Shown one piece after another: positions 936 through 56,386 of a DNA stretch of 64,000 bases. Position 1 is the stretch's first letter. Each line of letters begins with the position of its first letter. Under the pieces are notes generated by a model. The model was not told the origin of the DNA. It did not search any database and saw only the letters and a list, made by a program, of their open reading frames with translations. Source of the DNA: Candidatus Doudnabacteria bacterium (lineage in GTDB: Bacteria > Patescibacteriota > Doudnabacteria > UBA920); the NCBI GenBank assembly GCA_003151625.1, contig PLYC01000021.1, forward strand, positions 80,235-144,234, written 5' to 3'. The translations under genes and the position numbers were made by a program.

Positions 936-3900
936 TTATTTTTTCTTTTCCTTCTTCGTCGGCTTCTTTTTAACCTCATCGTCAAACAAAGAAGTTTCAC
1001 TTACAATAGGCATTACTGGGGGGAGGTTTGGAACAATAATTTCCGGCTCTTCGGCGGCGGAGCTTACCGCGCCGTCCCGGCCGAGCAGTTCCACATCCAG
1101 ACAAAGCGACTGTAATTCTTTAACCAAGACTCTGAAACTTTCCGGAATATTTGGTTTTTTAATCGGTTCGCCTTTGACAATGGCTTCGTAAGTTTTTGAG
1201 CGTCCTACTACATCGTCCGATTTTATGGTCAGCATTTCCTGCAGAGTGTGGGCCGCGCCGTAACCTTCCAAAGCCCAGACTTCCATTTCCCCAAAACGCT
1301 GGCCACCGAACTGGGCTTTTCCGCCAAGCGGCTGTTGGGTAATAAGCGAGTACGGACCGGTGGAACGCGCGTGCATTTTGTCATCTACCAAATGGTGTAA
1401 TTTTAAGAAATACATTACGCCCACGGTAACTTTTTCATCAAACCTGTCGCCGGTTTTTCCGTCTATTAGATAGACCTTGCCGTCTTCCGGAATGCCGGCC
1501 TTTTTTAATTCTTCTTTAATTTTACTTTCGTGTACTCCGTCCAAAACCGGAGTCGCGACATGATAGCCCAAGCGTAAGGCGGCCATGCCCAAATGAGTCT
1601 CTAAAATCTGTCCGAGGTTCATACGGGACACCACGCCAAGAGGATTTAAAATAATATCCACGGGGGTGCCGTCTTCCATAAACGGCAAATCTTCCACCGG
1701 AATAATTTTGCTAATAACTCCTTTGTTTCCGTGGCGGCCGGCCATTTTGTCGCCGACCTGGACTTTGCGCAATACCGCGACTGAAACCTGAATACTGCGA
1801 ATAACGCCGCTCTGGAGCTTGTCTCCGGCTTCCCTGGTAAACTGGCGGATGTTTACAACTTTTCCGTATTCGCCGTGAGGCAAAGTCAAAGAGGTGTCTT
1901 TAACATCGCGGGACTTTTCACCAAAAATTACTCTTAAAAGTTTTTCTTCCGCGGTTAAATCCGTTTCGCCTTTTGGCGTAATCTTGCCGACTAAAATGTC
2001 CCCGGCTTTAACCTGGGCGCCAATGCGGATAATCCCGGTGTCGTCTAAATCCTTTAATTTTTCTTCGCCGACATTGGGAATGTCGCGGGTAACCTGCTCT
2101 GGTCCCAACTTAGTATCGCGCACATCTATTTTAAAATCATCAATATGAATACTGCTGTAGCGATCCTGCTGAACCACGCGCTCGGAGACCAAAATAGCGT
2201 CTTCGTAGTTACCGCCTTCCCAAGACATAAACGCCACCAAAACATTTTGGCCCAGAGCCAATTCGCCGTGTTCAGTAGAAGCTCCATCTGCCAACAAATC
2301 TCCTTTTTTTACAGTTTGTCCCTTATTTACACGGGCAATTTGGTTAATGGATGTGGCGGAGTTGGTTCGCAAAAATTTCAACAGCGGATATTCTTTCTTT
2401 TTGCCTTTTTCGCCGACCACAATAATTTTTTCGCCCATGACCGATGTTACGGTGCCGTCTTCTTCGGCCAAAACCACGGTGCCGGAATCACGCGCCGCTT
2501 TGCCTTCCATACCCGTGCCGACTATAGGCGCGTCGGGCTTTATGCAGGACACGGCCTGACGTTGCATGTTACTGCCCATTAACGCACGGTTGGCGTCATC
2601 GTGTTCCAAAAACGGAATCAACGATGTAGTTACGGAAATAATTTGTTTTGGAGAAACATCCAAAAAATCAATATCGTCCGTGGAAGCCATAGTCGGCACA
2701 GTGCGTACACGTACGCTGGCGCGGGGTTCCACAAAATACCCCTGCTCGTTTAAATTAATATTGCTTTGACCGATAATTAATTTTTCTTCCTGGTAAGCAT
2801 CCAAATAAACAATTTTTCCGGTGGCGCGGGGCTTAATTCGTACTTCCAATAGCTGATGATTTTTGGCCGCCTCTTTGGCTTTGCTCGCGCTGACGGTTTC
2901 TCCGGCCGGCACTATGACTTTGCCTTGTTCATCTTTAATATCGTAAAGGGAAATTTCTTCTTCTAAGTCTTTGCCGTCATTTTTGGCGGCTTTTTTTACC
3001 ACGCGGTACGGGGTTTCTATAAAACCAAAATCGTTGACGCGCGCGTAAGTTGCCAAGTGGGCCACGAGTCCGATGTTCGGTCCTTCCGGAGTGGTAATTG
3101 GGCAAAGCCGGCCGTAGTGGCTATGGTGCACATCGCGGACTTCAAATCCGGCGCGTTCTCTGGAAAGTCCTCCGGGACCCATGGCACTAAGGCGGCGCTT
3201 GTGTTCAAGCTCGGCCAACGGATTTGTCTGGTCCATAAACTGGGACAGCTGGGAAGAGGAAAAAAATTCCTGCATAGTGGCAACTATGGGGCGGACATGG
3301 ATAAGCTGGGCTGGAGTTACAGTATCTAAATCGGCCAAGGACATGCGGTCTTTGGCTATTCTAGCCATGCGGGCAAGGCCAACGCGAAAGCGGGCCTGGA
3401 TAAGTTCACCAACGGCTCTGACGCGGCGGTTTGCTAAGTGGTCTATGTCGTCCGGTATGCCCTGGGTATTGTTTAATTTAATAACTTCCCGAACAGCCAT
3501 AACCAAATCTTCTTTGGTCAAAATTTGGCTTTCGTTATTTTGTACGTTTAAGCGCTGGTTAAACTTATAACGGCCGACCGCGGAAATATCGTAGCGCTCG
3601 GTGTTAAAAAACATACCGGAAATTAAAGACTTGGCGTTGTCTACGGTAGCCAGGTCGCCTGGGCGAATTCTTTTATAGACTTCCTTGTAGCCTTCGTCGG
3701 CATTAGTGGAAGCGTCTTTTTCCAGAGTGTTTAAAATATATTTAGTGTCCGGGTCGGTATCTACGTCTGCAAAAGCGGCTAAAATTTCCTCGTTGCTGTT
3801 TAGACCGAAGACTCTTAAAAGGGCGGTTATGGGAATTCTTCTTTTGCGGTCGATTTTTACGCCAATTACTCCGGCGGCATCGGTATCCAGTTCCAGCCAA

Positions 3901-4433
3901 GCGCCGCGGTTAGGTATGATTTTCGCACCGTAATAATTTTTACCGCGCAAATTCTCGGCCGTAAAAAATACGCCCGGGGATTTAATAAGCTGGTTAACCA
4001 CAACGCGCTCCACGCCATTGATAATAAATGTGCCGCGCGGAGTCATTAACGGAAAATCTCCAAAATACACGTCTTGAGTCTTTACTTTGCCGGTTTGTTT
4101 GTTGACCAGCTTGGCGGAAACATACAGCGGGGCTTCGTAAGTGGTGTTTCTCTCGCGGGAAGTAAACTCGTCGTATTTGGACTTGTCAAAAAAGAAATCG
4201 CCAAAAAACATTTCCAGGTTTTTCCCGGTAAAGTCGCGAATCGGATTAATTTCTCCCAATAAGTCCTTAAGACCTTTTTCTACAAACCACTTATACGAAA
4301 TTAGCTGTACCTCTATTAAATTAGGCAGCAGCGCGGTTTCGTGGCTTGAGGTAAAAAACTTGCGTGGTGACAACTTGCTCTCGGGGAACTTAACCATGGC
4401 GGAGACGCCAACGGTTTTAGATTTAGTAGCCAT
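936..4433 (-). CDS. rpoB: DNA-directed RNA polymerase subunit beta
   Basis: 1165-aa ORF with a characteristic RpoB sequence throughout (e.g. ..[27 protein letters not shown].., ..[15 protein letters not shown]..). Confidence 0.97.
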
Positions 4434-5487
4434 TAAATAACCTAACTTAGGATTGCTGTTTTTTTAGAGACAACACTCCCTAGAGCCAAAAAACGCACTT
4501 TTTGGCTTATTTAAGGATAAAAACTAAATCCTATAAACCTCTTAACAAAAAGAGGTGTTACAATATTGAGCCATCCCCGGATTAAATCCGGGGAAAAAAT
4601 TGGCCAAAATTGTAAGACCGAAGAATATTCTACATCTTCTATCTCCCCGAAATCATGATTGAAGACGCAAAACATTCCCTTTTTCGCGTAAGCAAAAAAG
4701 GCCGATCCACAAAGGCTTATAGGCTTATTAAATTGTGCATATTAGGATTGTAGCAGTCAAGGAGAATTTGTCAAGTCCCAAACCGCAGGTTTGGGACTTA
4801 GCCCTGTACCGGAAGCCTTGGCGACTGGTACGGGGCAAGTCGATCATTTCATTTGTATCTCTATCCTACCACACTTACCCCCAAACTTCAAACAGTTAAT
4901 CCACAAGTTATTATTTTTCAGGCCACCAAGCTATTTTTCACCCCATCCCCTAACGAACGGGGCGGCAGGAAAAGAATAGAATGATGGCCTGGAAAATCGG
5001 GACGAACAAGGCGTAGTGCTTAGCCTGGTTCATCCCAAAGTGGTGCAATTTTTTTGTTTTTCCGGCGCCCCTGTTTGGTCAAGGCTGCCGGGCAAGTTTT
5101 GGAGAAGTTATTTTTTCCTCTTCTTCGAGTTTCTCCTTTCCAGCCGACGGCCTTGCTCAACGCCGAGCTGGACTGCCAGGTTGATTATGACCCACAGCAG
5201 ATCCCGACCCTCCTCCTCTTGTTGCTGGAGCATTTCGGGATCAAAAGTCCTGTAGGGCCGCGCACTCAACCTTCTCGCAAGGTTGGATTGAGTGGAGATA
5301 ACGTCCAACCCCTCATACACAAGGGTCTGGCGTTTTCTCCTTTGAAGCCGATAGCCCTGGCGGAGAGCCGACACCAAAGGGTCGACAATCCACTCAAGAA
5401 ACCTTACCGGCTGCTTTTTTGGCCACTCCACTTTTCTATTCACCTCCTTTATATGGTTTTTGTGGCCGGTTCCATCAACCGGTAATC

Positions 5488-48164: not shown

Positions 48165-49208
48165 TTACTGGTTGACGGTCGGGGGAGTCAGTGGTTCAAA
48201 GATGTCCTGCACCCCATAAACCGCCTCATCATAAGCCACACCGAACGGCGACAGCACAGTAACACGAAGGCGAGCGCCGTCGTGCAGGTTGTTCAGATCG
48301 TAATCCACACGTCGATCAAACCTCTGCAAAGCGGGTTGCCCTGCGACAAAGGGCTGAGGAGGGAAGACGCCGATCACGGATTGCGAGTTGAGCATATCCG
48401 TGATATTGTCGTGCCCGTCGGCAAGCCACATTGTCGTAACTTCGGATGGGCCGCCCAACGACGAAATGCTGGCCACTAGCTGAAAGCGCGATGACTTGCC
48501 AACCAAGCGATACAAAGTCTGGCTCGGCGGCAAGTTAACGCTCAGCGTTGTCGGGATAGTCACGTAACCGGTCTCCGGGAAAACAATTTTGGTCTGGCCG
48601 TCGCGCTTGTCGTACATATAGAACGCAATTCCAGCCGGACGGCCTTCGTTGCCGATGTCGGAGTTGACGAGCGTGAAAGTGAAGGTATTAACGCCGTCAA
48701 AAACAAAGTCGACGGGCTGCCTGTTAGGGTTGTCCCCCAACAGATACAACCACGCGCCATTGACATCAATTGAACCGGAACGATCAAAACGTTCCATCGG
48801 ACGTAGCAGTCCCCCGTTGTAATAAAGCGTAAAGGACTCAACGTGGCTCGGAGTGCCGGAGTTCTGAATATAGTACTCAATGCCGGCGTCATACGGGTCG
48901 CTGACTTGAACCCGAAACTTGGTCACGAGCCCGTTGGACTGCAAGCAGAATGCCTGCAAGGTTACCTGCTGAACCGACGGCAACGGCGTGCCGGTGGGGG
49001 TAGACGTACTCGTCTGCTGCGGAGTGACGCACACCGGCGTCGGATCCGGCAGGTTGAAGATCCCAACCTGATTGAGCGCAACGGCCAACGGCCGAGGCTC
49101 GGTCTGGGCTAAAGCGGCAGTTGCAAAGATGGCCGCTAGTACTACGATGATCCCGAAAAACCGTTTAGTGGTAAACATTTTTGTCCTCATCCTAAAATAC
49201 ATCACCAA
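48165..49208 (-). CDS. Secreted hypothetical protein (GC-rich foreign gene); start uncertain (probably MFTTKRFF at 49178)
   Basis: N-terminal hydrophobic signal ..FFGIIVVLAAIFATAALAQTEP. Thr/Pro-rich linker. Visibly GC-rich versus flanks. Confidence 0.5.
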   Translation of the reverse strand: MVMYFRMRTKMFTTKRFFGIIVVLAAIFATAALAQTEPRPLAVALNQVGIFNLPDPTPVCVTPQQTSTSTPTGTPLPSVQQVTLQAFCLQSNGLVTKFRVQVSDPYDAGIEYYIQNSGTPSHVESFTLYYNGGLLRPMERFDRSGSIDVNGAWLYLLGDNPNRQPVDFVFDGVNTFTFTLVNSDIGNEGRPAGIAFYMYDKRDGQTKIVFPETGYVTIPTTLSVNLPPSQTLYRLVGKSSRFQLVASISSLGGPSEVTTMWLADGHDNITDMLNSQSVIGVFPPQPFVAGQPALQRFDRRVDYDLNNLHDGARLRVTVLSPFGVAYDEAVYGVQDIFEPLTPPTVNQ

Positions 49209-49484
49209 GAAATCCTCGAGAAGTTCCCTGGGCGCAGATAAAGCATCACAAATGACGCCCTAACTTCGCCCAAGGAACACAATATTTTCTTCTCTTGTAT
49301 CCCGACTTTTTACGTCGGGGTTAATTAATATATCCTCCAAACAATTTTAAAGAGCTAAAAGTTAGCCTGCCACAAAATATGCAGATTAACCTACTATTAT
49401 ACATTTTTTTAAGATTTTTGTCAATATCTCCAAACAAAAAACCGCTTAATTTAGCGGTTTGACCATCTACCAATTACCAATTTT

Positions 49485-49555
49485 TTACGGATATACAGAT
49501 TACTGCAGTAATCTGTATATCCGTATGGTTTATCCGTAATCCGTAGATGAACTTA
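49485..49555. repeat. Left flank direct repeat of the GxxExxY cassette (contains the perfect palindrome acggatatacagattactgcagtaatctgtatatccgt)
   Basis: Shares ttacggatatac.gat.ctgca and atccgtaatccgtagatgRact with the right flank at 49935-50035. Confidence 0.6.
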
Positions 49556-49930
49556 ATACAGGTTCAAAATTCGTTTAAACTTAACCCCTCCGCCAGTAAA
49601 GTTGGCCAGTATTGCCAACTGGAGATTCATACTTTTTAAATAACTTTTTGTTTGTTCTATATGTTGACGCGAAAAAAGGTTATCTTTTTTTATTTCCAAT
49701 ATAACTTTATTATCAATAACAAAATCAGCTTGCCTTCTTCCAATAAACACTCCTTTATATTCAAGCAAAACAGAAACCTGCTCTTTGAATGAAATCCCCC
49801 TACTCTTAAATTCCGCCGCTAGTGCTCGTTGGTAATACTTTTCCAATAGTCCACTACCCAATTGATTATGGACTTCAAAAAGTGCACCAATAATTTGCCT
49901 TGAAAGTTCTTTATGTATTAATTCCGTCAT
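49553..49930 (-). CDS. GxxExxY family protein (PD-(D/E)XK nuclease-like)
   Basis: ..GSGLLEKYYQRAL.. contains G-x-x-E-x-x-Y. About 125 aa, typical for the family. Flanked by direct repeats. Confidence 0.65.
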   Translation of the reverse strand: MTELIHKELSRQIIGALFEVHNQLGSGLLEKYYQRALAAEFKSRGISFKEQVSVLLEYKGVFIGRRQADFVIDNKVILEIKKDNLFSRQHIEQTKSYLKSMNLQLAILANFTGGGVKFKRILNLY

Positions 49931-49934
49931 AGAT

Positions 49935-50035
49935 CATCTACTAATTACGGATTTGTTACGGATATACGGATACTGCACAGCCCTTCATAGATTGGTATAT
50001 TGGTAATGCATCCGTAATCCGTAGATGGACTCCTA
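49935..50035. repeat. Right flank direct repeat of the GxxExxY cassette
   Basis: gttacggatatacggatactgcac ... atccgtaatccgtagatggact, homologous to 49485-49555. Abuts the stop of the PilB-like gene. Confidence 0.6.
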
Positions 50036-51709
50036 GCCTTCTCCTGCCACCCTAAACACTTCCTCTACATCTGTCATGCCCTGCAAAGCTTTTAGCAGGC
50101 CGTCTTGGACCATGGTTATCATACCCTGAGACACGGCGACTTTTTTAAACTCGGCCATAGAAGAATTTTCTTTTAAAATTAGAGCCTGAACCGCTTCGGT
50201 ATTTTCCAAAACTTCGTAAATGCCCACGCGGCCTTTGTAGCCTAAATTATGGCATTGGTCACAGCCGGCGGAATGGAAAAACAACAGCTCCTTTGGCAGT
50301 TCCACATTTGCAACTTTTGGAATTTGGTTTAAAATGTACTGGATTTTTTCCATAACCGTGGGCGAAAGCTGAGCGGGTTTTTTACAGCTTTGGCACAGGC
50401 GCCTCACTAACCGCTGCGCGAGTACCGCCGACAAAGCGGGCGCGGCCACAAACGGCTTAATGCCCATATTCAGCAAGCGCGGAATGGCGCCGGCGGCATC
50501 GTTGGTGTGAAGTGTGGAAAAAACCAAGTGGCCGGTCAGCGCGGCCTGAAGCGCGGTCTCCGCGGTTTCCTGGTCGCGGATTTCACCCACCATTACAATG
50601 TCAGGATCTTGCCGCAATATGGCGCGCAGGCCTTTGGCAAAATCAAAATCGTGCGTATGGTCTATTGGCGTTTGAACAATCCCCTCCAATTTGTATTCCA
50701 CCGGATCTTCCAGAGTAATAATTTTTACTCCCGGCTGGTTGAGCTCATTTAAAAACGCGTAAAGCGAAGTGGTTTTACCGGAGCCGGTTGGGCCGGTGGT
50801 AATAACCATACCGTTGGGTTTTTGCAACATCCTCTCTACTACTTCCAAAGCCTGGGTGGAAAAACCCAAATCTTTTAACTTTAAAGTACTGGCTCCGGTA
50901 CCGAGCAAACGCATAACAATTTCTTCGCCGTACGCGCTGGGCAAAATGGAAACACGAACGTCAATAGGCTTTTGCAGATAGTAAAAAGTTATACGCCCAT
51001 CCTGAGGCACGTCTTCCACGTTCAGTTTTAATTTAGACAAAATTTTAATGCGGGTAACTATGGATCTCTGTAGGTCTTTGCTAATGTGCAACATATCCTG
51101 GAGTACGCCGTCCACGCGAAAACGCAATTTAAAAAAATGCTCCTCCGGCTCCATGTGAATGTCGGAAGATTTATAAAACATTCCCGCGCCAAAAATAATT
51201 TCCAAAAGTCGGCTGGCATTTTTGGCCTTTTGTTCCGTCTCGCTTTCCATGGACTTTAATAGATCAGCGTAGTTTTCCTCTTTTTCCACTTTTAAAACTT
51301 CTTCCGATGCCAATTTCGGCCTTAATACTTTACTGTAAAATCTCAAAGTCTGCAGCAAACTCATTTTGGAAATAAAATATAATTTAACTTTATGGTTTAG
51401 CGCCAGCTCTTTTATTTTCTCCTGGAGCAGCGGGTGGTTTGGCTGGATGGTGGCAATGCGCAGGTCGGTTAAATCTTTATAAAAAGGCACAGCGCTCATT
51501 TCTTTGGCCTCGGCTTCGGTAAACATACCCAAAACGGCCAAGTCCACCGGAAAATTATGCAAATCTATATATGGCAAATTTAAAGAGCCGGCTTGAGCTT
51601 GCGCTTCTTCCTCTTCCATTTTGCGGTTGAGCTCATTTAAGCCTTCCTGCAGTTCCTGGGGTGAACTCGCTAAAAATTTATTGGACATAAAATATTGGTA
51701 GAAAAACAC
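50033..51709 (-). CDS. Type II/IV secretion-system ATPase (GspE/PilB family), likely type IV pilus assembly ATPase
   Basis: Walker A GPTGSGKTTSL. Asp box and His box regions. C-terminal Zn-binding ..CQSC..CDQC... Confidence 0.85.
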   Translation of the reverse strand: MFFYQYFMSNKFLASSPQELQEGLNELNRKMEEEEAQAQAGSLNLPYIDLHNFPVDLAVLGMFTEAEAKEMSAVPFYKDLTDLRIATIQPNHPLLQEKIKELALNHKVKLYFISKMSLLQTLRFYSKVLRPKLASEEVLKVEKEENYADLLKSMESETEQKAKNASRLLEIIFGAGMFYKSSDIHMEPEEHFFKLRFRVDGVLQDMLHISKDLQRSIVTRIKILSKLKLNVEDVPQDGRITFYYLQKPIDVRVSILPSAYGEEIVMRLLGTGASTLKLKDLGFSTQALEVVERMLQKPNGMVITTGPTGSGKTTSLYAFLNELNQPGVKIITLEDPVEYKLEGIVQTPIDHTHDFDFAKGLRAILRQDPDIVMVGEIRDQETAETALQAALTGHLVFSTLHTNDAAGAIPRLLNMGIKPFVAAPALSAVLAQRLVRRLCQSCKKPAQLSPTVMEKIQYILNQIPKVANVELPKELLFFHSAGCDQCHNLGYKGRVGIYEVLENTEAVQALILKENSSMAEFKKVAVSQGMITMVQDGLLKALQGMTDVEEVFRVAGEG

Positions 51710-53149: not shown

Positions 53150-53439
53150 GAAATTAGTCGATAACTAATAATTGATAACTTATAACAGTGCAAAACTAAT
53201 AATAAAGGTTCGCTCTCCGCAGAGCTCCGAGGTGCTGAACCTGTATTAGCTCCTCGGCTCGGAATATTGTCTGCCGGAGGCAGATAATATTCTCTCGCTC
53301 TACGTCGCAAATAAACTATCAATTAAATATTATCAGTTAATTCAACGATTTATCAGTATAATCCATTTTACTTTAGGCGTCAATACAGTGTAAAATGATA
53401 AATAGATATTGAATGATGTGGGGAAATTAAGATATTTGG

Positions 53440-55242: not shown

Positions 55243-56286
55243 ATGATTACATCAAGCAACAAACAAGACGCTCCATTGCAAGCCGAACCCGAAGATCAGG
55301 AGGAAATAATTATCGAACAAACTTTGCGACCGCAGAGTCTTTTGGAGTACGTGGGACAAACGGGCGTCAAAAATAATTTAAATATAATTATTCAGGCGGC
55401 CAAGCAGCGGGGGGATGTTTTGGAACATTTACTGTTTTACGGGCCGCCGGGCCTGGGCAAAACCACGCTGGCGTTTATTGTGGCGCGCGAAATGGGCGGC
55501 AACATTAAAGTCACTTCAGGTCCGGCCATTGAACGCGCCGGAGATTTAGCCAGCCTGCTCACCAACTTAAGCGAAGGCGATGTGTTATTTATAGACGAAA
55601 TTCACCGGCTCAATAAAGCCGTGGAGGAAGTTTTATACCCGGCTATGGAAGACCACGTACTTGATATAGTTTTAGGCAAAGGCCCAGGCGCGCGTTCTAT
55701 CCGAATGGATTTGCCTAGGTTCACGCTAATTGGCGCGACTACCAGAATCGGACTAATTTCTTCCCCCCTGCGCGACCGCTTTGGCGCCACCTACCGTTTG
55801 GAGTATTATCCGGAAAAAGATTTGCAAACCATTATAAACCGAAACAGTAAAATCCTTCAGGCAAATATTATAGACGAAGCTTCGGCCGAACTTTCCAAGC
55901 GCTCGCGCTTTACCCCGCGCATTGCCAACCGCCTTTTAAAGCGGGTGCGTGATTTTGCCCAAGTCCATGGCCATGATACAATTAATTTACAAACGGCCAA
56001 ACAGGCCTTGGAATTATTGGAAATAGACGGTTTGGGTCTGGATAAAAACGATCGCCGGGTATTGGAAACTTTAATCCATAAATTTTCCGGGAAGCCCGTG
56101 GGACTAAACACGCTGGCCGCGGCCACCGGTGAAGAGGAAGACACCATAACCGATGTCCACGAACCGTTTTTAATCCGCCTGGGGCTTTTGTCCAAAACCC
56201 CCAAAGGCCGACAGGCCACGGAAGCGGCTTATAAGCACCTGGGACTAACTCCGCCTATCGATCCTCAGCAAAAACCCCTTTTATAA
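55243..56286 (+). CDS. ruvB: Holliday junction DNA helicase RuvB
   Basis: ..[15 protein letters not shown].., ..LFIDEIHRL.., sensor motifs. Confidence 0.95.
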
Positions 56287-56386
56287 TTAAATAAAATTGA
56301 CAAAATTAAGTAAAATTAAATAAAAATTACTGCAACAAATTTTGTTCAATTTTACTTAATTTTATTTAATTCTGGTCAATCCCCTT

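Follow-up and report, generated by a model that had tools for sequence, protein, structure and literature searches.

A predicted GxxExxY nuclease gene between palindromic heptad arrays in a variable slot behind pilB of a Candidatus Doudnabacteria bacterium

In a 64,000-nucleotide stretch of DNA from a Candidatus Doudnabacteria bacterium (contig PLYC01000021.1 of assembly GCA_003151625.1, positions 80,235 to 144,234 of the forward strand; the whole stretch is called the window here), a small gene of the GxxExxY family lies between two similar repeats directly downstream of a pilB-like gene. What kind of unit do the gene and its repeats form, and how did they come to lie behind pilB? An earlier reading, made from the letters alone (hereafter the sequence-only reading), had described the locus as a selfish, repeat-bounded cassette and took the repeats as a sign of recent mobility or of a duplicated target. 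Our analysis partly supports the interpretation as a selfish repeat-bounded cassette: the locus is a discrete repeat-bounded module immediately after pilB, its repeats are palindromic arms rather than a duplicated target, and its association with pilB is ancient, the cassette having been replaced and lost repeatedly. The reading that we favour, with about evenly balanced confidence, is a compact selfish nuclease cassette consisting of the GxxExxY gene and conserved arms that would serve as recognition sites.

Alignment of the two flanks found both motifs quoted by the sequence-only reading on both sides and confirmed their similarity (85% identity over the first 40 nucleotides (nt) and 95% over the last 22 nt). 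The direct repeats, given before as about 70 bp, are real and longer, namely 93 nt in the terminator-proximal copy (palindrome L) and 100 nt in the pilB-proximal copy (palindrome R) (Table 1). The perfect palindrome noticed in the left flank is also present, at 40 nt (49486-49525) instead of 38 nt, and palindromy, which had been noted for the left side, extends to the right side as well, both flanks being long imperfect palindromes whose ends read CATCTAC ... GTAGATG. The assignment of the enclosed 125-aa open reading frame (ORF) to the PD-(D/E)XK-like GxxExxY family was borne out by its matches to PF13366 PDDEXK_3 (E 8.5e-33, 113.6 bits, cut-off 22) and TIGR04256 GxxExxY (E 1.1e-32, 112.8 bits, cut-off 35), which make it a full-length member of typical size.

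Table 1. Features of the cassette and its immediate surroundings, with positions in the window
Feature	Positions	Strand	Remarks
Whole cassette (palindrome R, ORF, palindrome L)	49461-50031	-	571 bp, 35% GC
Palindrome R, pilB-proximal repeat copy, 100 nt	49932-50031		arms 49935-49967 and 49995-50027
Palindrome L, terminator-proximal repeat copy, 93 nt	49461-49553		outer arms 49464-49477 and 49536-49549
GxxExxY / PDDEXK_3 gene, 125 aa	49553-49930	-	PF13366 and TIGR04256 matches
pilB-like type IV pilus / type II secretion system (T2SS) assembly ATPase	50033-51709	-	PF00437 T2SSE, E 1.1e-120
Intrinsic terminator of the pilB-GxxExxY transcript	49439-49460	-	AAACCGC..GCGGTTT, then a T-run; directly after palindrome L
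Consensus promoter TTGACA-17-TATAAT (12/12) for the downstream 347-aa gene	49396-49424	-

The two palindromes are direct copies of each other, and each of their four arms carries four TACNRAT units (TACGGAT-like heptads) at spacings of 7, 11-13 and 8 nt. In palindrome R, the 33-nt arms are 79% complementary and enclose a 27-nt centre (unit spacing 7, 11 and 8 nt), while the perfect 40-nt palindrome within palindrome L closes on a CTGCAG centre without any spacer. Since each flank unit is a palindrome, inverted repeats also enclose the ORF (49532-49553 and 49931-49952, 86% complementary), and terminal inverted repeats are present both at the window cassette and in family loci. The 18-mer ATCCGTAATCCGTAGATG occurs exactly at 49532 and 50010 and in reverse, with 2 mismatches, at 49935, and nowhere else in the 64 kb (0.01 matches expected by chance; 3 matches were reached in 0 of 100 shuffles). 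The direct-repeat score of the window flanks is 68, while the same metric applied to other genes gave a 95th percentile of 23 and a maximum of 41. RNA folding gave z-scores of -8.4 for the left unit (-45.8 kcal/mol) and -2.4 to -4.2 for the right unit. The GC content is 35% in the cassette, 46% in the window and 36% in the adjoining intergenic DNA.

The ORF is predicted to encode a PD-(D/E)XK nuclease and is a new member of a known family. Its GxxExxY motif reads G27-L-L-E30-K-Y-Y33, and the residues E30, D69, E79 and K81 (E79-x-K81), which form the PD-(D/E)XK catalytic set and are invariant in an alignment of 34 sequences, are intact in it. The AlphaFold2 model of the ORF (pLDDT 94.6) adopts the alpha-beta-beta-beta-alpha-beta fold of PD-(D/E)XK proteins, with LHK-Exo, Cas4 SSO0001 and lambda exonuclease as the best Foldseek matches in the PDB (E 3e-5 to 1e-3) and archaeal Hjc as a much weaker one; no solved structure matching the ORF by sequence was found. 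Within each of the gene classes distinguished below, synonymous sites are saturated and the ratio of nonsynonymous to synonymous substitution rates, wherever it could be computed, is 0.06-0.17; purifying selection thus acts on the protein. The family comprises 24,663 cluster representatives (50% identity, E up to 1e-3), and many of its members are fusions of about 260-270 aa with two complete GxxExxY domains in tandem (e.g., P0182, P0183, P0186 and P0188), which suggests a dimeric functional unit. A survey of the PD-(D/E)XK superfamily listed PDDEXK_3 among the families without known function and noted multiple horizontal transfers for it (Steczkiewicz et al., 2012, PMC3424549). In the literature searched, we found no account of flanking heptad arrays of GxxExxY genes, of a pilB-linked slot and its dynamics, of their genomic context or of any activity. 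PADLOC models returned only a weak Cas4 core similarity and no defence-system match for the protein, PHROGs gave no match, and no relative was found in viral contigs scanned with the GxxExxY alignment.

Are the repeats peculiar to the window, or do they belong to the gene family? An alignment of 11 closer GxxExxY sequences was used to scan one genome per species, which returned 44 loci from Patescibacteria classes, Bacteroidota, Saganbacteria, Margulisiibacteriota and metagenome-assembled genomes (MAGs) of Gammaproteobacteria, a sample biased to Patescibacteria-like members. For each of the 38 usable loci (Patescibacteria, Bacteroidota, Saganbacteria and Gammaproteobacteria MAGs), the 150-nt upstream flank was aligned to the reverse complement of the downstream flank, with 83 neighbour ORFs as controls. 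The inverted-flank score was far higher at the GxxExxY loci than at the neighbours (median 37 against 16, P-value = 3e-13, Mann-Whitney test), and 79% of the loci exceeded the control 95th percentile. Direct flank repeats were not enriched overall, and were enriched in only about 10% of the family loci. Thus, inverted heptad arrays, not direct repeats, are the more basic feature.

Each arm is a tandem array of 3-5 units. Almost all of these units either read (T)ACGAA(N) or differ from it by 1-2 nt (ACTAA, TACAA, ACAGA and CACAG, with ACGGA in the window); they are usually arranged as two units, a 3-5-nt spacer and two units, and the outer ends of the arms often read TCTAC...GTAGA. The best 5-mer unit occurred at least twice on both sides in 30 of the 38 loci, and in 5 of 86 controls. 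The canonical form has the gene between convergent arrays: (TACGAAN)x3-5, gene, (NTTCGTA)x3-5. The outer arms of the window (50023-49997 in '+' and 49500-49474 in '-' polarity) follow the plan of two units, spacer and two units, fit the canonical array, and align with the two arms of the closely related locus L009 (loci are given by their numbers in our lists where they have to be told apart). The window is a variant with extra inner arms of opposite polarity; its outer arms occupy the canonical positions, each having gained a complementary partner on the gene side, and the window gene therefore lies between two complete palindromes. In one Saganbacteria MAG (L030), the GxxExxY gene lies between direct repeats of about 110 nt (2880-3000 and 3390-3510, score 80) instead of inverted heptad arrays, a distinct layout for a member of the family. 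A paper on a 77-bp inverted repeat of P. gingivalis (PMC3969353), matched only via oligo ends, proved to be unrelated.

Conservation of the arm sequences far exceeds what neutral evolution would leave. Identity is 85-97% in the arms of loci with 50-80% identical proteins and 41-52% identical third codon positions; for L037 and L054, the values are 94% for the 5' arm, 50% for the protein and 44% for third positions, and in four other pairs the arms are 91-97% and the third positions 41-52% identical. Similarly, the palindromes of the class to which the window gene belongs (class A) are 80-89% identical between lineages in aligned columns, against 42-54% at ORF third positions. Two paralogous elements of one genome, L021 (TACGGAT) and L035 (TACGAAC), have different units, so the arms travel with the gene and not with the host.

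Conservation of this kind, together with solo palindromes, would also be expected if the palindromes of about 90 nt were a dispersed, non-autonomous intergenic family, with the GxxExxY gene as the single-copy enzyme that spreads or maintains them, in the manner of repetitive extragenic palindromic (REP) sequences and the REP-associated tyrosine transposase (RAYT). An exact scan of 241 million metagenome records with the 18-mer returned five loci, of which only L014 and L016 are true and represent one further locus (L014/L016); L015 and L017 were chance matches to the 18-mer, L018 was an unrelated GC-rich tandem-heptad tract, and viral contigs held chance matches only. The L018 tract is intergenic (about 3878-3930) and reads TACGGAT TACGGAT TGCGGAT TGCAGAT TGCGGAA. 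L014, a 10-kb contig without a GxxExxY gene, has two solo palindromes of the window family (3812-3898 and 4583-4650), which flank an unrelated gene for a 193-aa secreted protein with its own promoter and terminator, beside an H+-pyrophosphatase gene; stand-alone palindromes therefore exist in at least one Doudnabacteria genome. One relative of the window (L065) retains a palindrome after loss of the gene. The window itself, however, has just two palindrome copies, both at the gene, and in 24 of the 28 canonical loci scanned, clusters of at least three units occur only beside the gene ('+' upstream, '-' downstream). The only extra unit cluster in the 189 kb scanned, which included three gene-less comparison loci, is that of L014, one of these comparison loci, and no dispersed palindromes were found elsewhere in the window or in the other scanned loci. 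As at REP/RAYT (REPIN) loci and IS200/IS605 ends, an enzyme gene is flanked by hairpin palindromes related to solo intergenic ones; unlike in those systems, the protein is of the PD-(D/E)XK type rather than an HUH Y1 transposase, the copy number is very low, and the arms are mostly found only at the gene. We therefore regard a REP/RAYT-like family as improbable.

With all loci written in the direction of pilB, the content of the pilB-downstream slot proved to be hypervariable in close relatives, those that share at least 85% pilB identity with the window. In the window, the slot holds a class A gene. L009, whose pilB is 98% identical (aa), has a class B GxxExxY gene (63% identical to that of the window) inside one palindrome, in the order 5' arm (TACAGAT x3), gene, 3' arm, and class B genes were also detected in L025, L026, L023 and L024 (pilB 68-85%, tblastn). 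L021, L008, L007 and L002 (pilB 63% in L021, partial pilB in the others) carry class A genes that are 65-89% identical to one another. All have a full palindrome upstream, whereas the downstream side has a lone 3' arm or, in L007, no arm that could be recognised. L003-L006 (pilB 81% over the last 228 aa) have a class A gene between two full palindromes like the window, with the ORF inverted. In L065 (pilB 88%), a palindrome and 14 codons of a class A gene are followed by unrelated DNA. Furthermore, L010, L012, L066 and L067-L069 (pilB 85-90%) have no gene, and a 40-45-nt spacer of other tandem heptads leads to the terminator.

The slot is thus polymorphic for presence and absence at one homologous site, occupied in the window, L009, L025 and L021-L026, and found without the gene in the close relatives L010, L012, L066 and L067, where a terminator of the same type directly follows pilB. 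The spacer heptads of the gene-less sites are of unrelated sequence (AAAGTAT/AAAGAAG/AAAGTAG, (GAAAGTT)n and CAATTAA/CGATTAA; L012 4660-4700, L067 3160-3200, L066 3160-3190, L010 4660-4695). In the window, the stop codon of pilB, whose orthologues are 62-98% identical, lies 1-4 nt from the cassette. The sequence-only reading had set a conserved context against recent mobility, and the context is conserved: the class A gene follows pilB in lineages whose pilB is only 62-81% identical, with saturated synonymous sites, so the linkage of gene and pilB is old. Likewise, the idea of a duplicated target or a recent insertion was not upheld, the flanks being copies of the conserved palindromic element described above. 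The proposed mobility stands insofar as the cassette is replaced, truncated and inverted among relatives, but the only traceable exchange is homologous recombination into pilB, not transposition.

That exchange was traced between the window and L009. The nucleotide identity of their pilB genes falls towards the cassette over four successive segments (98, 96, 90 and 85%), the last 250 nt of pilB being as different as those of separate lineages; the cassette itself is 62-73% identical, and from the T-run of the terminator up to and including the promoter the two loci again share about 98% identity. Such a pattern is the footprint of a homologous-recombination tract in which the cassette and the adjoining 3' end of pilB were exchanged as one; it shows replacement, not transposition. 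Consistent with this, the identities of GxxExxY and pilB sequences are discordant (Spearman rho 0.25), and the content of the slot has not been inherited in step with pilB. Cassettes have been swapped between lineages by homologous recombination, with tracts reaching into the 3' end of pilB. The gradient fits the co-conversion of flanking markers, yet ordinary recombination gives an identical pattern.

The inverted ORF of L003-L006 raises the question of whether the unit is an invertible, phase-variable element, in which the inverted arms are recombination sites and expression of the ORF, relative to the pilB transcript, is switched by flipping it. The inversion is supported by both junctions in four independent assemblies, with the gene antisense to pilB in L003; an assembly artefact was rejected because the four assemblies, from different samples, agree, both junctions are covered, and the arms are shorter than k = 141. 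At L003 1-33, an Illumina TruSeq adapter (TGACTGGAGTTCAGACGTGTGCTCTTCCGATCT) is joined inside the palindrome, an artefact of the public assembly, and the orientation is backed by the three other contigs. Both orientations thus occur at one locus in related lineages, and inverted repeats of 22-33 nt bracket the ORF. The two orientations are, however, each fixed in separate lineages, with ORFs that share only 77% identity, and no single population was seen to contain both; a recombinase gene is neither adjacent nor among the matches listed (25 of 71 Pfam families, 46 other window ORFs). Phase variation by inversion is therefore very unlikely.

The same matches listed contain no integrase, which bears on the idea of an integron-type gene cassette with attC-like imperfect palindromes as its boundaries. 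Integron cassettes and the unit share a small promoterless ORF, direct imperfect palindromes (about 60-140 nt in attC, copies of 93-100 nt here) and variable content at a fixed site, with presence, absence and replacement. Unlike integron cassettes, the unit has no attC core sites (its ends are CATCTAC / GTAGATG, not RYYYAAC / GTTRRRY), it is a single cassette rather than part of an array, the orientation of the gene is not uniform, and the arms across the family are inverted around the gene, not direct. An origin as an integron cassette is accordingly the least credible of the explanations considered, and we give it almost no weight.

The window is chromosomal DNA with rpoB, polA, dnaN and ruvB among its genes, and named relatives of its pilB and GxxExxY sequences point to Candidatus Doudnabacteria (Patescibacteria). 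On the minus strand, the order is pilB-like ATPase gene, palindrome R, GxxExxY gene, palindrome L, terminator, promoter and an orphan 347-aa gene. No promoter is predicted inside the cassette, and the GxxExxY gene is therefore probably co-transcribed with pilB. A promoter in the 5' arm was considered and dropped, given its poor fit to the consensus and the occurrence of identical arms in Bacteroidota, whose promoters differ. With Rfam 15, no match reached the gathering score in the window, and E-value searches of the window region and 11 loci gave only sub-threshold matches far below the gathering scores, namely generic hairpins on the window palindromes and two stray matches elsewhere in the loci.

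This arrangement might be explained if the gene belonged to the pilB operon as a resident accessory gene that is passed on vertically and at times lost by deletion. Its palindromes, or a long-range stem, would then act in the RNA as RNase III processing or stabilising stems that release a stable monocistronic mRNA, comparable to those that separate genes of phage T7 or bound rRNA intervening sequences. The location after the pilB stop codon and ahead of the shared terminator, the absence of a predicted internal promoter, the linkage kept over lineages with 62-98% pilB identity, and the saturation of synonymous sites within the gene class all agree with it, and the local palindromes as well as the canonical 5' and 3' arms would give double-stranded RNA stems of about 35 bp. 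Nevertheless, mismatches of the G:U type show no strand bias (26 sense vs 20 antisense), the need for a stem alone leaves the tandem heptads conserved across phyla unexplained, and a class switch next to a 98% identical pilB, along with the recombination gradient, is not vertical inheritance. The antisense gene of L003 and the lack of an Rfam family match in the searches above also speak against it. We consider RNA stems of a resident gene unlikely, although less so than the other alternatives.

Under the favoured reading of a selfish nuclease cassette, the arms would be multi-site recognition elements for the encoded nuclease, which would probably act as a dimer or a higher oligomer. By binding to or cutting DNA at or near the arms, it may promote recombination. 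Such recombination would maintain the cassette and let it spread selfishly, much as in homing, which could account for its loss, replacement and inversion. We infer that the nuclease itself may bind or cut the arms. The spacer-less perfect 40-nt palindrome of unit L hints, speculatively, at a recent hairpin or fold-back intermediate.

Several points weigh against this reading. No target-site duplication was seen by eye at the window or in the printed canonical loci, no clean insertion boundary was seen, no second copy of the cassette lies within the 64-kb window, and the spacers of the gene-less sites, made of other heptads, are not a precise empty site. The two-palindrome layout of the window fits no simple insertion model; circle integration, nested insertion and circular permutation were tried, and none of them places the observed arm ends next to the ORF. 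Ordinary homologous recombination between conserved flanks, following uptake of DNA, suffices for the traced exchange without any activity encoded by the element. Arms that are better conserved than the protein, as in L037 and L054, would also fit recognition by a conserved host factor, and the old linkage with pilB could reflect a host function tied to pili or DNA uptake.

How does the unit compare with other known systems? Homing endonuclease genes, including the PD-(D/E)XK enzyme I-Ssp6803I, share with it a small nuclease gene at a fixed site by a conserved host gene, presence and absence among close relatives, and a drop of flank identity towards the element as in co-conversion. The differences are that the gene-less sites here are imprecise and that cleavage of the site is putative; conserved inverted arrays of tandem heptads are not known from homing endonuclease genes. 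Tn7, Mu and Ac/Ds are transposons whose ends have several subterminal transposase-binding repeats. Like the arms, these ends have 3-5 direct short units each, are mutually inverted and have a distinct outermost unit (CTAC.../...GTAG here); unlike those elements, the unit is about 0.5 kb long, has one 125-aa nuclease domain, and was seen without target-site duplication or evidence of transposition. Inverted repeats are also shared with terminal-inverted-repeat transposons and miniature inverted-repeat transposable elements (MITEs), whereas target-site duplication and multiple genome copies are not (single locus in the 64-kb window), and where a genome has two elements (L021 and L035), their units differ. 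Intervening sequences of 23S rRNA can contain a small ORF, the four-helix-bundle 'S23p' genes. They resemble the unit in having an ORF of about 120 aa within inverted repeats with long stems and in being sporadic among relatives; the unit differs in lying outside rRNA, in its protein fold and in its tandem-heptad arms.

The neighbour of the cassette, the pilB-like ORF, matches TIGR02538 PilB with E 3.5e-147, below the equivalog cut-off, and homologues and gene callers use a 551-aa form starting from 51688. Adjacency to such ATPases is not confined to the window: 10 of the 44 GxxExxY loci adjoin a T2SSE-family ATPase gene (L021-L026, L050, L060, L034 and L051), and in four of them the neighbour is a paralogue that is just 38-43% identical to pilB. 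A preference for such targets, or a functional connection to pilus or secretion ATPases, could lie behind this adjacency. The pilB neighbourhood is a general hotspot for accessory genes. Accessory modules around pilB include an MNT/HepT toxin-antitoxin pair between a DHH gene and pilB (L012, 2304-2982) and an AbiEii gene downstream of the truncated cassette (L065, 4079-4656).

On the other side, the promoter of the downstream gene forms the right-hand conserved border of the variable slot and is near-identical in L009. The 347-aa gene (48165-49208, signal-like N-terminus) and a 1241-aa gene (44091-47816, with a PT-repeat linker) are orphans without Pfam match. The former diverges very fast, with about 50-70% nucleotide identity to L009, while pilB is 95-99% identical over its 5' two-thirds. 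In the 5' leader of the gene downstream of the slot, there is a conserved stem (CCTTGGGCGAA...CGCCCAAGGAA; window 49215-49300, L007 680-760, L009 2520-2590, L012 4890-5030, L010 4760-4900, L067 3410-3520), the centre of which holds MITE-like inserts in some relatives (GTCATTCCGG...CCGGAAT...).

Two further intergenic repeats were detected in the window. The first, at 53152-53342 upstream of a DHH-family gene, is an inverted repeat with 32-nt arms of GATAAC-type units around a 127-nt GC-rich centre without an ORF, and may be another small arm-bounded element. The second, at 56282-56380 directly after an ORF ending at 56286, is a palindrome of tandem AAATTAAGT/AAATTAAAT units, another hairpin of periodic units in the same genome.

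GxxExxY/PDDEXK_3 is a large family without known function that is annotated in thousands of genomes. As a broader and tentative proposal, which we think possible though rather doubtful, GxxExxY genes with convergent (T)ACGAA-type arrays may be widespread, undescribed selfish elements of about 0.5 kb, whose sole 125-aa nuclease would recognise its own arms and drive recombination-based spread, with the gene-less palindromes of Doudnabacteria as derivatives that would resemble REPIN/RAYT systems with a different enzyme. Even on an ordinary reading, the arrays are to be annotated as part of the unit of the gene. Bacteria of the candidate phyla radiation (CPR) are thought to rely on pili for DNA uptake, and a recombination hotspot beside a pilus ATPase is documented here in CPR bacteria. 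For the family, the conserved, sequence-specific pair of repeat arrays that travels with the gene is a concrete candidate substrate, so that the predicted nuclease and its arms can be put to the test as a protein-nucleic-acid pair. Should the nuclease act on them, the unit would represent a minimal mobile or homing element of a new type, and might also provide a compact sequence-programmed nuclease.

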